Below, in pieces: positions 46,414-62,163 of a stretch of 64,000 bases of DNA. The stretch is from a virus, in IMG/VR virus record IMGVR_UViG_3300035670_000105, positions 26,163-90,162 of that record; one strand, 5' to 3'. The notes below the pieces were generated by a model. It was not told the origin of the DNA. It was given only the letters and a program-made list of their open reading frames with translations, and searched no databases. Both the position numbers and the translations under genes were made by a program. Position 1 is the stretch's first letter. Each line of letters starts with the position of its first letter.

Positions 46414-47168
46414 TCAGACGGAGTAGATGAAGCTGTGGGCGATGGTGACGAAATCGAGATTCAGATTTTCGAAGCCCGCGAACAGGCTCCAGATGAGAAT
46501 CACATAACGCGAAAAGTCATCATTGCTGTTGATGAGGACTTGCGCATTGTTCCCGCCGACACCAATGCCGATTGCCTGCGGCCCGAAGAACATCGCTGTA
46601 GCAGCTCGGGTGCTCTTCGCGGTGTTGGCCGAGAAGCCCGACGCACCATCAATCGACACCGAATAGTTATATTCGGGGACGTTAGTCGACTCGAAGAAGC
46701 GACACCCCTCAAACAGAAATCCCTGCGGCATCGTTGGCGCTCCGGCTACAAAGCCGGCTTGGCCATAGGCGGGGCCCATTCCCAGGAAATTCGATGCGTT
46801 AGGCGCCATGAATGGCTGCATCGGATTCACCATCCCGTTGCCAGGATAGCGTGCGATCTCCCTGAAATCTTCGTCCTGCCTGAGGTGCATGAGGAAGGCA
46901 GGATCGACCAGTGCTCGATAGTAACCATCCGCAAACGTCGGGACGTTGCGAGCACGCATATCGGTGACGACCTTGAGTAGATCGTTCTTCACCGAGAACT
47001 TGGCCTGGTTCTCATCACCAGCACCGGAGACATCATAGCCAGGTGTTGCCAGACCGGCTTCACTCAGGCCGCCAGGGAAGTAGTAACCACCCTGCTCTTC
47101 ATTGGCTTGACCGCGAGAGTAAGCCTTGTAGAGTTCGTTGATGAACACACGATCGCGCCAGCGGCGGT
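46414..47168 (-). CDS. Major capsid protein, exon 3
   Basis: Joining T|AC gives ...LLDD-Y-RRWRDRVF...; ends NDDFSRY..IWSLFAGF. Confidence 0.88.
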
Positions 47169-48373
47169 CTACCGAACCCGCTTTGGGAAGCGAGCCGCGG
47201 GGCTCTTTATCCCCGCGTCTACCCTTTGTCATCGAGTAGAGTCAGACTATATCTTCATCCGCTTTCAAGTGCTCGTCCCACTACGCGACCTCGGTATTGA
47301 GGCCATGGAAAGACTCACGGATACGATGAGCGACGCTGAAATCAGCGCTCTCTACGGCCTCACGAGAACCGCTGCTACCCACGCCAGGAAGCAGCTAGGT
47401 GTGAAGTCGTATGCGGAGAAGCACGGCAAGCGTCGCTACCGCGACAGCTACGAGCCAAAGCCCGGTGCCAAGCGTGTCTTCTCCCATCGCCTTTCCGGTG
47501 TTGACGAGCACTACTTCAGTTCCATTGGAACTGAAGACAGGGCCTACTGGCTTGGCTTCTTTCTTGCAGATGGCTGGATCGTCACGGAGAAAGGGACCCC
47601 CACTGGCTTTGCCATCGCCCTGCACGAGCGAGACAAAGAGGCCCTGCAGGACTTACAGAACCGCCTTGGTGGAAGCAACATGCTCCGAAGAACCAGGCCA
47701 GGCAGCAACCTACTGCAACTCAAATTGACCTCAGGCGTAGCTGCGAGACAGCTCATCCTTCACGGGGTCGTCCCCCGAAAGTCAAGAGTCGCCACTCTTC
47801 CCAAGCTATCCGACGAACTGATGCCCCACTTAATCCGGGGCTACTTCGACGGTGACGGGTCTATCAGCGTAAGAGGCGTCACGCTAACTATGGATTTCAC
47901 CTCTGGTAGCAAGGTTTTACTTGACCAGATAAGAGTCCATCTTGAGCGTGTGGCTGGCGTCAAACCAAACCTTACACCTGACCGCGCCTCTTGGAAGTTG
48001 CGTTTTTACGCAGAGAACGCTGTTCGCCTCGGCTGCTATATATATGGGCGTCCAGCCCATAACCTGTTCTGCCTTAGTAGAAAGAAGCAGAAATTCCTGT
48101 CTTATCTTGAAACGGATGCGGGGCACTCGTGGGAGCAATTACTGCCCGTTCTGGGCTCGGCTCCTAGTCGTTGAACCTTCCGTCCTGTTCCCAGGAGGGC
48201 TTGGCTGCTGATTACCCATGCGGCGTGGATCTTTTCAAGCCGTCGCGTCTGCCCTCTCAGGCTCCGCTGTGGCGACCCAGCTTTTTCCCTTGCTGAAGGG
48301 GGAAGGGCTTCCAGCAATTCACCCCGTATTGCCCTGACAGTTACCTGTCAGGCGACCACCAGCCTTTCGGCCG
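47169..48373 (-). mobile_element. Group I intron 2 of the capsid gene (1205 nt), carrying a homing endonuclease in L8
   Basis: Exon U / terminal G; P AATTGCTGGAA 48309-48319; Q AATCAGCAGCCAAG 48200-48213; R GTTCAACGACTA 48165-48176; S AAGATATAGTCTG 47243-47255; P1 with U.G pair. Confidence 0.93.
47305..48174 (+). CDS. Double-motif LAGLIDADG homing endonuclease, antisense to its intron
   Basis: YWLGFFLADGWI and HLIRGYFDGDGSI; N-terminal HTH-like part; alternative GTG start at 47269. Confidence 0.9.
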   Translation: MERLTDTMSDAEISALYGLTRTAATHARKQLGVKSYAEKHGKRRYRDSYEPKPGAKRVFSHRLSGVDEHYFSSIGTEDRAYWLGFFLADGWIVTEKGTPTGFAIALHERDKEALQDLQNRLGGSNMLRRTRPGSNLLQLKLTSGVAARQLILHGVVPRKSRVATLPKLSDELMPHLIRGYFDGDGSISVRGVTLTMDFTSGSKVLLDQIRVHLERVAGVKPNLTPDRASWKLRFYAENAVRLGCYIYGRPAHNLFCLSRKKQKFLSYLETDAGHSWEQLLPVLGSAPSR

Positions 48374-48779
48374 AGTCATCGAGCAGAGTGAGTGAACCAA
48401 TGCTCTGGTGGAAGACGCCGATGTTGCCAGTATCCAGCAACAGGCGCTGAGCGGTGAGCAGGTTTTCCCGGCTCACCTTGAAGGTGCTGGGCTGATCGGG
48501 CTCCACCGGATCTGCGGGGCCCGTATATTCATGAAGCGTCACCAAGACCTTCTGCTTGGTGATGTTCCGGCTGCTGGCAGTGCCGATGGTTTGATCAGGA
48601 TTCCGCTGACGGGTTTCCTTAGAACCAGGCGCTCCCCAGTAGCTATAACGATCAAGCTGAACTGTCTGTCCTGGCATCTTGCTAAAGTCGTGAACTACGA
48701 CCGGCTCGATTGCCATCTCGGCCACATAAGTGGGGTGCGGCCTATAAAGCTCAGCCCCAAGAATCTTGGGGAAATCACT
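48374..48779 (-). CDS. Major capsid protein, exon 2 (N4-gp56-like, HK97 fold)
   Basis: SDFPKILGAELYRPHP...DFSKMPGQTVQLDRY. Confidence 0.88.
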
Positions 48780-49129: not shown

Positions 49130-49141
49130 ATCAATCCACAA
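49130..49141 (-). CDS. Major capsid protein, exon 1 (TTG TGG ATT GAT = MWID)
   Basis: GGAGG SD at 49153-49157; joins in frame to SDFPK; spliced CDS is 1173 nt = 390 aa. Confidence 0.8.
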
Positions 49142-49210
49142 AACGGAAAGCGCCTCCTGCGCGAATTCGGTGTGGAGGCAACCGGGGTTGTTCCCGTGTG
49201 CCTTACGGCG

Positions 49211-49226
49211 GATGGTATGTACCCTT
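49211..49226. promoter_or_regulatory. Back-to-back motif variants: CATACCATC (-, capsid) and TACCCT (+, degenerate LAGLIDADG)
   Basis: gatggtatg at 49211-49219 abuts taccct at 49220-49225, 24 nt before ATG 49250. Confidence 0.55.
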
Positions 49227-49249
49227 ATGCCTGTGTAAGAGCAACTGCA

Positions 49250-50104
49250 ATGGCTGGCACGCCACGGACAATCCTCAACCCCTATGAATCGGCGGCCTTG
49301 ACGCGACTGGTGATGTCCTTCTGTTTGGGCAAGGGCTCGCTCTGCCTGTACAGCCGTTGCTATGTCCTGCAGATCGCCCAACCCAATCGCGCTGGCGACT
49401 ACGCCCACTACCAGTGGCGGCGCATCTGCCAGTTCATTCCGACCGCCAAGGCACCGCGCTTCCATCCCCTCGGGCCCGATGGCGAGGGGGAGGGAGATGA
49501 TCGCGGCCAGTGGCGGCTGCGCATCACCAGCCGCTGGTTTGAGACGGCCTACAACATGCTCTATCCGCTGAGCGGTGCGGATCCCGAGAGTGGCTTTCGG
49601 CCGTTCCGCATCGAGCAGCCGGCGCTGGAGTTGCTCGGCGCAGAGGCCATCGCGTCACTGTGGGCGGATCGCGGCCGCGTCCTGCGCGGCACTGGAGCAC
49701 TCAAGGGCCAGCTGAACCTCAGCCGCATCTCCTTTGAAGAAGCGGATCTACTGGCTGCCTGGATCAGCCGGCTGACGGGTGCCAGCGGTGAAGTGGACCG
49801 CAGCCCCCGCAACGCCAATGCCCCGATGCTTTTCCTGGATCAGGACGATCTGCTGGCGATGCTGCAGGCCTTGCGCCCCACCTGGATGGCGCAGGCTCCC
49901 TGCCTGCTGAGCAAGTTCCAGCCGGAGCTGCCGCCGCCATCGAAGGCAATCCCGCGTCGCTCGCGCCGCCGTCGCCTGGCACTGTCGGCTGCGATCGAAT
50001 CAGGCCCTGCCGGTGTGGCGCCGGTGCCAGCGGAGCGGAAGCGCAACCGGCGCATCCCGGTACAACGGCCGATGCTGCCGCCGCTGCTCAACCAAGCAAG
50101 TTGA
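49250..50104 (+). CDS. Degenerate LAGLIDADG (I-SceI/LAGLIDADG_2-like) protein lacking catalytic Asp residues
   Basis: SFCLGKG and AIASLWADRG at the two motif positions; spacing and intervening pattern fit the fold; basic C-tail. Confidence 0.65.
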   Translation: MAGTPRTILNPYESAALTRLVMSFCLGKGSLCLYSRCYVLQIAQPNRAGDYAHYQWRRICQFIPTAKAPRFHPLGPDGEGEGDDRGQWRLRITSRWFETAYNMLYPLSGADPESGFRPFRIEQPALELLGAEAIASLWADRGRVLRGTGALKGQLNLSRISFEEADLLAAWISRLTGASGEVDRSPRNANAPMLFLDQDDLLAMLQALRPTWMAQAPCLLSKFQPELPPPSKAIPRRSRRRRLALSAAIESGPAGVAPVPAERKRNRRIPVQRPMLPPLLNQAS

Positions 50105-59905: not shown

Positions 59906-61453
59906 TCAGCCGTCTTCATCCCGCCATTCACCCCAGCTGGGCTGGAGCCGGCCCACACCAACCAGGGCCCGCACCATCAGCACAAAGGCATCGACGCAGT
60001 CGTCGTGCTCGCCGGCGCCGAAGTTCATCATCTCCTGCCAGAACGGCTCCCAGTTGAGGAAGCGATTCCAGAGCACGCGGCCGGTCTGGAACAACCCGAA
60101 GGTGCCGCGGAAGCGGGTGAGCTTGTCACCGCGGTAGCCGGTGACGGCCTTGAGGACGATGTTGTGCAGGCCGCGTTCATCCAGCAGGATCTTGCGGGCA
60201 TCGGCCTGCATCGACTGCTGGTAACTGATCGCTTCAATGTTGATCGTGACGGGGACATCGGTGGGGAACCACTGATCAGCGTGCTCGCCATCGCCCTCGA
60301 CGATCACGCCCCAGTCAGCCAGGAGCGCGCAGAGTTCATCGAGCTTCTCCAGGTTGCCCATCGAGCGGATGCGGCGATAGTCGATCACCTCAACGCGATC
60401 GCCGATGATTCCGCCCAGCACCATCACGGTGAAGTCGTTGCGCTCCTTGAGGCCGGAGGAGAGATCGATGCCGACCGCCAGGGCGTCATAGGACTCGATC
60501 AGCTCACCGCTCTTGAGCCAATCAGCCGGGAAGTCCACCTCGCTGCGGGAGACGGGCAGGTTCTGGAACTGGAAGGAGAAGCTGATGGCATCCTCCGAGC
60601 GCAACCGGCGGAGGTGTTCCAGGGAGTAGAAGTCCGGCCAGTAGCTCTCCTCCAGGCCGTCGTCCCGGGTGACGATGGCCTGCTGGGTGACGACGCGCCA
60701 GCCGTTCTTCTCGTTGAAGGTGGTGGCGAAGATGTCCACCGTGGAGAAGCGTGTGCCCAGGGCGATGGTGCGCCCGCCTTCTAACAACGTGGGCTGCACC
60801 ACCTCCTGCCAGTTCGTGATCAACTTGCGGCGGATCTCCGGGTTCTGGATCGACTCGGAGGATTTGACCACGTCGTCAAGCACGATCAGCTGCGAGCGGC
60901 GGGAGGTGATGGAACCCGAGAGGCCTTGAGCGCAAACCGAGAACGGATCCTCACCGCTGTAGTCCACCTCGGCAAAGTCGTAGTCGATGCTCCACAACTC
61001 ATCCGACTGCCTGGTCTTGGACAGGCGCACCATCGGGAAGACCTCCTGGAACTCCTTGCCATTGATGATGGCCTTGATCGTGTGAGAGCGAGAACGAGCG
61101 ATGTCCAGGGAGTAACCCAAGTAGAGCACCCGCAGCATCTTCCCGGCCTGGGCGTGGATGCCGATCAACCAGGCAACCAGCAGGCCAAGAGTGGTGCTCT
61201 TACTGGAGCCCCTGGGAGCGAGGATGGCGGTGTTCGGGCCACCACAGCGCAGGAGCTGGCTGCTGTCGTTGTCTGTGATGAACTCGCGGTGCCAAACCCG
61301 GTGGTGCTCAGCCGGTGGCTTGCCGAGGTGGCAACAGAACGCCGAGAAGTCACTGCGAGCACAGCGCACTTCGACTGGCACCTCAAACTCGACGCGCTCT
61401 ACCCCGGACGCCAACGCCTTGGCGCGATGCAGGTGGGCCAGCGCCAGCTCCAT
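59906..61453 (-). CDS. terL: Terminase large subunit
   Basis: APRGSSKST, LIVLDD, LGTRF, GIDLS...DFT, HDDCVDA. Confidence 0.93.
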   Translation of the reverse strand: MELALAHLHRAKALASGVERVEFEVPVEVRCARSDFSAFCCHLGKPPAEHHRVWHREFITDNDSSQLLRCGGPNTAILAPRGSSKSTTLGLLVAWLIGIHAQAGKMLRVLYLGYSLDIARSRSHTIKAIINGKEFQEVFPMVRLSKTRQSDELWSIDYDFAEVDYSGEDPFSVCAQGLSGSITSRRSQLIVLDDVVKSSESIQNPEIRRKLITNWQEVVQPTLLEGGRTIALGTRFSTVDIFATTFNEKNGWRVVTQQAIVTRDDGLEESYWPDFYSLEHLRRLRSEDAISFSFQFQNLPVSRSEVDFPADWLKSGELIESYDALAVGIDLSSGLKERNDFTVMVLGGIIGDRVEVIDYRRIRSMGNLEKLDELCALLADWGVIVEGDGEHADQWFPTDVPVTINIEAISYQQSMQADARKILLDERGLHNIVLKAVTGYRGDKLTRFRGTFGLFQTGRVLWNRFLNWEPFWQEMMNFGAGEHDDCVDAFVLMVRALVGVGRLQPSWGEWRDEDG

Positions 61454-62163
61454 CAGCCCTGCCCCTCGGGCGACACGGGTGGGAACTTCTTGGCCTTGTG
61501 CAGCTCCCAGGCCCGCTTGTAGGGAATGTCCGCCCGCTCAGCCGCCTCGGCCAGGGACATCGTCTCTCCCCCGTGGAAGACCCAGAGCGTGGTGCGACGG
61601 TTGCGCGCTTGCGTCTTGGGAAGCACCCAGGCCACATTGCCGGGCTCGTAATTCCCGTTGTTGTCCAGTCGCTCCAGGGTGTGACGAGGACTGGGGCGTG
61701 GGCCGACATCTTCAATGAAGGCCCCGAAGTCATCACGCCAGACCCGCCACACCTCGATCCCCCTGCCGCCGTACTCGGGGTAGTCCTTGCACGACTTCAG
61801 GTAGCAGCGGCGGCGCATCGCCAGCCAAACGCGATGCTCCGGGGTTCCGCTCCTGCCGTGCTCCACCTGACGCTTTCCCGTCTCCGCCGCGGCCTCGCGC
61901 TGCAGGCAGCCACAGCTCTTACTCCTCCCCGCCTTCAACTCAGACAGCAACTTGACCCGCCGCGTCTTGGCTGGGCAGTCGCACTCCACCAGAACAGCAC
62001 TGTGGAGCGACCAACCACGGCGCATCTTCCGATCCGTCACGCGAACGGGCTCGGCTTGCTCCACAACTACCCAGCGTCCGAACCGCGCTCCCACTTCAAC
62101 CGAGCTGCGCGACCTGGCGACAGGCTTCTCGGGTAGCTCGACAAAAATGGAACGGCTCAACAC
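61453..62163 (-). CDS. Free-standing HNH homing endonuclease
   Basis: RFGRWVV, CDC, SCGC, YGGRGI, TLERLDNNGNYEPGN. Confidence 0.88.
   Translation of the reverse strand: MLSRSIFVELPEKPVARSRSSVEVGARFGRWVVVEQAEPVRVTDRKMRRGWSLHSAVLVECDCPAKTRRVKLLSELKAGRSKSCGCLQREAAAETGKRQVEHGRSGTPEHRVWLAMRRRCYLKSCKDYPEYGGRGIEVWRVWRDDFGAFIEDVGPRPSPRHTLERLDNNGNYEPGNVAWVLPKTQARNRRTTLWVFHGGETMSLAEAAERADIPYKRAWELHKAKKFPPVSPEGQG

Follow-up and report, generated by a model that had tools for sequence, protein, structure and literature searches.

We analysed a 64,000-nucleotide stretch of viral DNA (hereafter the window), bases 26163–90162 of the 90,162-base IMG/VR record IMGVR_UViG_3300035670_000105, which is rated complete by CheckV and whose sole related phage among the GenBank collection is Synechococcus phage S-EIVl (KJ410740; also written S-EIV1). 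Its major capsid gene, which like the other structural genes of the window lies on the - strand, is split into three exons by two group I introns. The second of these (intron 2) is probably a mobile phage intron of the IA type, carrying in its P8 helix an inverted and independently expressed gene for a LAGLIDADG_3 homing endonuclease. Both matches to the Rfam group I intron model RF00028 in the whole 90-kb record are found at the capsid gene, and the record contains one LAGLIDADG_3 gene.

A ribozyme and an endonuclease gene on opposite strands

The full RF00028 model (1–253) aligns to the - strand of intron 2 at 47219–48391, with 47.3 bits and an E-value of 3.6e-10. P1 is formed by GACU (48377–48374) and GGUC (48357–48354) with a GAAA-capped extension, so that the last exon base, U, pairs with the guide G. 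A GNRA loop caps P2, the intron ends in G (the complement of C47169), and P7 and P3' are separated by an extra P7.1/7.2 element, as they are in the IA introns of phages. We aligned five homologous introns, from the window and from the related contigs L026, L033, L035 and L046. P7 (GACUA/UAGUC) and P3 (CGGGG/CCCCG) are invariant, and for the 57 pairs proposed in the 5' domain 96.8% of the cells are paired across the five introns. Compensatory change on both sides is seen in 17 of these 57 pairs, compared to 0–2 in controls with slid partners, and none of 500 shuffles reached the observed values; covariation is found also in P8, P9 and P9.1. This shows that intron 2 is a structurally conserved - strand group I ribozyme, for which self-splicing is predicted. 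The P8 arms proposed in a first-pass annotation of this DNA (48106–48118 and 47256–47269) proved correct, with 13 pairs and one bulge giving -16 kcal/mol in duplex folding and a loop of 831 nucleotides between the arms; owing to the bulge they are missed by a repeat search and had to be established through duplex folding. The invariant L9 loop CUCGAUGAC(A) (47240–47233, - strand) repeats the end of exon 2, CUCGAUGACU (48383–48374), which could be a coincidence, or an exon mimic pairing with the internal guide sequence.

The splice sites of intron 2 are U48374|C48373 and G47169|A47168, and exon 3 starts with AC CGC CGC TGG directly after the terminal intron base. Removal of the intron gives CTCGATGACT|ACCGCC, translated as LLDD-Y-RRWRDRVF, identical to the S-EIVl capsid open reading frame (ORF) and to the intron-less contigs L004 and L013, which shows that splicing would restore the capsid reading frame. 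In S-EIVl the capsid is encoded by an uninterrupted ORF of 383 amino acids (L001 5581–6732), while the homologue in the window is distributed over the three exons. The borders of intron 1 are set by the near-identical intron-less contig L004, where TTG TGG ATT GAT TCA GAC TTT CCC runs unbroken. The P1 of intron 1 in the Rfam alignment (start 49173) was rejected, as it includes the capsid ribosome-binding site and the TTG start; the true 5' splice site is after T49130. The serine codon past the intron 1 junction is AGT in the window and TCA in L004.

On the + strand, the ORF at 47107–48174 matches Pfam LAGLIDADG_3 (PF14528) at 1.8e-14 and contains both endonuclease motifs, YWLGFFLADGW and IRGYFDGDGS. 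Together with the RF00028 match and the exon join, this confirms the central claim of the first-pass annotation, that a double-motif LAGLIDADG ORF is found on the + strand while its intron and host gene are on the - strand. Candidates for the start codon are GTG 47269 (301 amino acids) and ATG 47305 (289 amino acids). Most gene calls in an alignment of 26 family sequences begin 12 codons upstream of this ATG, that is at the GTG, and 301 amino acids is the length typical of the family; the homologous start is GTG 47269, with which the ATG starts of relatives align, or else ATG 47305, and the more distal TTG 47107 was rejected. A protein database search returned ~35 clusters with 43–65% identity over nearly the full length. 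The alignment has 42 invariant columns, all present in the window copy, including the motif-1 Asp89, and the motif-2 catalytic Asp184, conserved in at least 90% of the sequences, is present as well. For the five DNA-level relatives the ratio of non-synonymous to synonymous substitution rates (dN/dS), taken over pairs without saturated synonymous sites, is 0.06–0.19, and by this measure the + strand frame is under purifying selection.

The AlphaFold (AF2) model of the protein, with a predicted local distance difference test score (pLDDT) of 84.8 and a predicted template modelling score (pTM) of 0.71, has a three-helix bundle at the N-terminus, followed by a linker and two alpha-beta-beta-alpha-beta-beta-alpha domains, the secondary-structure elements of which span residues 77–152 and 173–247. 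The top Foldseek matches are I-Tsp061I, bI3 maturase, I-AniI and I-OnuI (probability 1.00 to I-Tsp061I, I-AniI and I-OnuI), and I-Tsp061I (2dch) is also matched by a profile search at 7.7e-5. The model and the searches support a real and intact gene for a protein with the LAGLIDADG fold, which is predicted to cleave the intron-less allele.

Overlap with the ribozyme core

The endonuclease gene, with its first base on the last one of the P8 3' arm, fills the P8 loop and then continues into the core on the opposite strand. Its last 22 codons and the stop (48106–48174) cover the complement of the P8 5' arm, P3', P7.1/7.2, the P7 5' strand (48169–48165) and J6/7, in agreement with the ~23 codons described initially. 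The TGA had been placed inside R/P7. It is indeed within an invariant core element, GGUUCAACGACUAGG, where 48172–48174 is the complement of U200-C201-A202, but its exact place is J6/7, 2 nucleotides 5' of P7. The complement of this J6/7–P7 element also has a TAG in a second frame and therefore an incoming antisense frame would be ended in two out of three frames.

Is the overlap then a conserved property of the system? Comparison of the relatives indicates that it is not. In L026, L035 and L046 a TGA directly adjoins the P8 5' arm on its loop side and so the ORF stays out of the core; in L132, L133 and L139 it also ends at P8. In the window and in L033 this P8-side stop is absent and reading continues for 22 codons over the core complement. 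Among the 26 aligned clusters of the family, 12 have the long tail (...AGHSWEQLLSDLDSAPSR), three end midway (...GSGAGHS) and 11 end at P8. The tail (~23 residues) has pLDDT below 55 in the AF2 model and is predicted to be largely disordered. Its conservation exceeds that of the enzyme body, as would follow if it is imposed by the RNA, and reaches no further than that of the RNA underneath. Since the ORF ends ahead of the core in roughly half of the family, the 22-codon overlap looks like an incidental by-product, a lineage-specific read-through that goes on until J6/7 supplies a TGA. Protein P0012, a member of the family, reads beyond the usual J6/7 TGA (...NQTWPLVVEPSLLLPERLGC), which implies that in its intron either the frame would be changed or the core element, invariant otherwise, would have a substitution.

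Mobility, expression and the alternatives

Comparison with L004, which is devoid of both introns, reveals a distinct patch between them. The two sequences are 98.3% identical over 2165 nucleotides with their end precisely at 49130; on the other flank, from 47166, identity is 98.25% over 1543 nucleotides. Exon 2, aligned to L004 2169–2551, is much more diverged (Table 1), with nearly all differences synonymous. Of the 78 differences, 62 fall between the two splice junctions in the 1173-nucleotide coding sequence, and both amino-acid differences are outside this stretch. The ends of the patch are defined to ~60 nucleotides, as the background is one difference per about 60 nucleotides. Presence and absence of the introns together with the exon 2 patch would fit recent intron movement with co-conversion (gap repair), and the pattern suggests that the ORF-less intron 1 may travel with intron 2.

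How is the endonuclease produced, if its gene is opposite to the capsid transcript? The first-pass annotation argued that the gene needs a + strand transcript of its own, and the purifying selection on the + frame supports this: since the frame is maintained, such a transcript is required, and we infer that it is made. A consensus promoter scan over 3.5 kb returned two sites, each located on the + strand a short way upstream of the gene (Table 1), compared to 0.7 +/- 0.9 expected from shuffles. The -35 hexamer of the site nearer to the gene is the complement of the L9 loop GAUGACAAA and its -10 hexamer is the complement of J8/7–P7. We propose that the endonuclease would be made from its own + strand transcript, starting at this candidate promoter and with a nearly leaderless GTG start, which would free its expression from dependence on the strong late capsid transcript. 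The enzyme would cut intron-less capsid alleles (...CTCGATGACT^ACCGCC...) of co-infecting relatives, and repair of the cut allele would copy in intron 2. Given the patch, exon 2 and the ORF-less intron 1, which is about 400 nucleotides away, would be carried over by the repair as well.

Several points weigh against this explanation. The RF00028 score of intron 2 is below the gathering score of 50, because of the ~830-nucleotide P8 insert. The promoter hexamers are at the same time ribozyme elements (L9 GAUGRNAAA and GAGAUAGUC), which are kept also in ORF-less introns and in introns with sense ORFs, and therefore their conservation is no argument for a promoter. Past the endonuclease gene, folding the same stretch in five relatives revealed no conserved terminator; a hairpin followed by a T-run at 48216–48238 was rejected as one, being weak and unconserved in these relatives. 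Finally, loss of introns through recombination with an allele lacking them could explain the exon 2 patch equally well; intron 1, exon 2 and intron 2 were, as a whole, either acquired from a diverged donor or lost in an exchange with an intron-less one.

Other arrangements of transcription can be envisaged. One of them, which we consider fairly unlikely, is that the gene has no promoter of its own and belongs to a longer + strand unit together with orfX, a free-standing gene 1 kb downstream in the same orientation. The start of orfX is 30 nucleotides from the capsid start, which requires its promoter to be antisense within the capsid 5' region, and with orfX kept on the + strand in most related loci recovered, + strand transcription across this part of the capsid area is likely in the clade as a whole. 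However, the endonuclease gene is upstream of orfX on the + strand and would still need a start site at or before 47269, while no + strand gene is found within about 20 kb upstream of it. The idea that the endonuclease is expressed from a silent prophage was dropped, as Pfam Phage_integrase (PF00589) has no match at E <= 0.001 across the 90-kb record.

A different role for the transcript, unlikely in our opinion, is that the endonuclease mRNA acts as an antisense RNA on the ribozyme core and the P8 insert and so inhibits or times capsid splicing. Any + strand transcript of the gene would be complementary to at least ~830 nucleotides of the intron and in this genome also to P8, P3', P7.1/7.2 and P7, and with no convincing terminator after the TGA it may extend over the rest of the core and exon 2. 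Antisense interference has been discussed for nuclear ribosomal DNA (rDNA) introns with antisense endonuclease genes (PMC9548176). On the other hand, about half of the family has no core overlap of the ORF, and the overlap itself therefore does not seem to be under selection. Late capsid transcripts are also normally far more abundant than endonuclease mRNAs, which counts against timing by antisense RNA. Antisense control of capsid splicing is thus speculation. An extended version, quite unlikely, is that early + strand mRNA holds back capsid splicing until late transcription swamps it, with the one endonuclease also mobilising the whole intron 1–exon 2–intron 2 cassette; if true, the selfish element would double as a timer of capsid production. 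Very unlikely is that the gene is a passenger no longer encoding an active nuclease, or was recruited as a maturase aiding intron folding. In favour of this are bI3 maturase and the bifunctional I-AniI among the nearest solved folds, the FDGNGS seen in motif 2 of two family members and the absence of the motif-1 Asp from the neighbouring orfX. Against it, the window copy keeps both catalytic aspartates and all of the invariant positions, selection on the endonuclease is strong, and the intron polymorphism and exon patch argue for recent mobility.

Distribution, known systems and neighbouring genes

The layout is not confined to the window. An antisense endonuclease gene between capsid exons at residue ~140 is found in L026/L045, L033, L035, L046, L132, L133, L134, L137/L138 and L139. 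The antisense layout is common to about 11 related contigs, that is to every recovered contig encoding a close relative. When the capsid protein of S-EIVl was placed on related viral contigs, 41 in all (L004–L044), at least seven intron insertion sites became apparent, at codon 4 and at residues ~37, 48, 108, 140, 216–222 and 282–290, with up to four introns in the capsid gene of L043; in S-EIV1-like cyanophages this gene is therefore a hot spot for introns. The ORFs in the large introns at sites 37, 48 and 108 are sense and belong to the LAGLIDADG_2 family, while those at sites 140 and 282–290 are antisense and of the LAGLIDADG_3 type with a helix-turn-helix (HTH) domain. Since all the LAGLIDADG_2 intron ORFs are sense and the LAGLIDADG_3 ones antisense, orientation follows the endonuclease family and not the intron or the site. 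Nearly all of these capsid introns have a common 3' domain (GAGAUAGUC, L9 GAUGRNAAA and GGAUAAAGAGCC), and therefore one intron family has colonised the gene. A 246-nucleotide intron of L043 was considered as an ORF-less version of intron 2 and rejected, as it sits 3 nucleotides upstream and has different ends, representing a different insertion. Among 40 viral loci with distant LAGLIDADG_3 genes, three have an Rfam-detectable group I intron nearby, in all cases on the same strand as the gene, in a survey where introns with large inserts may be missed at the Rfam gathering threshold.

Phage introns mostly carry GIY-YIG, HNH, PD-(D/E)xK or EDxHD enzymes (PMC3984707), in line with the statement of the first-pass annotation that GIY-YIG or HNH enzymes are typical. 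The T4 introns in td, nrdB and sunY (IA2, with I-TevI etc.) and the intron that cyanophage Pf-WMP3 has in its DNA polymerase gene, with I-PfoP3I (PMC3428280) likewise have P7.1/7.2 and sit in essential protein genes. As in intron 2, the helix from which their ORF is looped out is a peripheral one and the host frame ends within a few codons of entering the intron, and homing, as proposed here too, involves co-conversion of flanking exon sequence. In contrast, their ORFs are in the sense orientation and encode GIY-YIG or HNH enzymes, while here the gene is antisense, encodes a LAGLIDADG_3 enzyme with an N-terminal HTH-like domain and, in this lineage, extends on the opposite strand into the core.

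Antisense endonuclease genes are documented in nuclear rDNA group I introns, where they encode His-Cys box enzymes, use a separate RNA polymerase II (Pol II) promoter and run a risk of antisense interference (PMC9548176). The literature hits for antisense cases also included one paper on a fungal mitochondrial genome. The Didymium introns Dir.S956-2 and Dsq.L2066 with I-DsqI (PMC9548176) likewise have the endonuclease gene in a peripheral loop opposite to the ribozyme and in need of a separate promoter. These are eukaryotic group IE introns in rRNA genes, involving Pol II, polyadenylation and spliceosomal introns in addition to the His-Cys box, whereas the present intron belongs to a virus of bacteria, interrupts a protein-coding gene and has, in P8, an insertion that encodes a LAGLIDADG enzyme. 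The endonuclease genes of phage and bacterial group I introns are described as lying in the sense direction. A 2014 review devoted to bacterial group I introns is silent on antisense or opposite orientation (PMC3984707), and our literature search found neither a phage or bacterial antisense intron endonuclease nor introns in S-EIV1-like capsid genes, although most subscription journals were outside its reach and this is not proof of absence. The locus represents a stable antisense solution in a virus of bacteria, clade-wide and tied to one endonuclease family. It offers a natural system for studying endonuclease expression against a very strong late transcript, convergent transcription and any antisense effect on splicing, and the invasion of introns by endonuclease genes.

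At the level of the protein, I-Tsp061I (2dch), I-AniI (1p8k) and bI3 maturase (2ab5) share the monomeric two-domain LAGLIDADG fold (Foldseek E-values of 4e-10 to 7e-8). Identity to them is, however, only 15–19%, and the window protein has in addition the N-terminal HTH-like domain and the disordered tail encoded by the core complement. In 'collaborative homing' a free-standing endonuclease is found beside an ORF-less intron, as in phage PhiI and for F-CphI at the psbA intron of cyanophage S-PM2. The arrangement here is similar in that the ORF-less intron 1 is ~400 nucleotides from the endonuclease-bearing intron and 43 nucleotides from orfX, with the patch-bearing exon between the introns. It is different in that orfX is present with or without intron 1 and is without the motif-1 Asp.

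Table 1. Features of the capsid locus, in positions of the window.
Feature	Position	Strand	Basis or remark
Capsid exon 1	49141–49130	-	TTG TGG ATT GAT = M-W-I-D
Group I intron 1 (350 nucleotides, no ORF, last base G; after capsid codon 4)	49129–48780	-	RF00028, 70.6 bits
Capsid exon 2, between both introns; recombination patch	48779–48374	-	86.7% identity to L004
Group I intron 2 (1205 nucleotides, IA-like with P7.1/7.2; after first base of Tyr140 codon)	48373–47169	-	RF00028
Major capsid protein exon 3, including stop codon	47168–46414	-	tblastn to S-EIVl capsid residues 141–377
P8 5' arm (intron nucleotides 256–268); + strand encodes part of endonuclease tail	48118–48106	-	Rfam alignment, duplex fold
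P8 3' arm (intron nucleotides 1105–1118)	47269–47256	-	GTG start of endonuclease gene at last base of the arm
Invariant GGUUCAACGACUA (P6 3' strand, J6/7, P7 5' strand)	48165–48177	-	identical in five aligned introns; complement contains TGA 48172–48174
Antisense homing-endonuclease gene, N-terminal three-helix (HTH-like) and two LAGLIDADG domains	47269/47305–48174	+	PF14528, alignment, model
Promoter-like site TTGACC-16-TAGAGT	47107–47134	+	consensus scan
Candidate promoter TTGTCA-18-TATCTT	47226–47255	+	consensus scan; present in five of five introns
orfX, free-standing LAGLIDADG_2-like, 310 amino acids, divergent from capsid gene, co-oriented with intron endonuclease gene	49172–50104	+	related loci

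An orfX is found opposite the capsid gene in most of the related loci recovered, with 98–30% identity and sometimes in two tandem copies. Its homologue in L006 matches PF03161 at 7e-5 and orfX aligns with the intron-encoded LAGLIDADG_2 ORFs, while a relation to LAGLIDADG_3 was rejected at an hhalign probability of 0.2. Motif 1 of orfX reads LGKGS, with Lys in place of the Asp (Arg in L006, L008 and L009), and so the protein may be a domesticated or nicking derivative.

The introns also affect annotation of the abundant freshwater S-EIV1-like phages, whose capsid genes can easily be overlooked or broken up, as has happened with S-EIVl in GenBank. There, positions 60784–62010 of KJ410740 (L001 5506–6732) are annotated as a - strand coding sequence plus a short + strand coding sequence. 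The capsid gene appears to be mis-annotated in this record, as the continuous 383-residue ORF is present.

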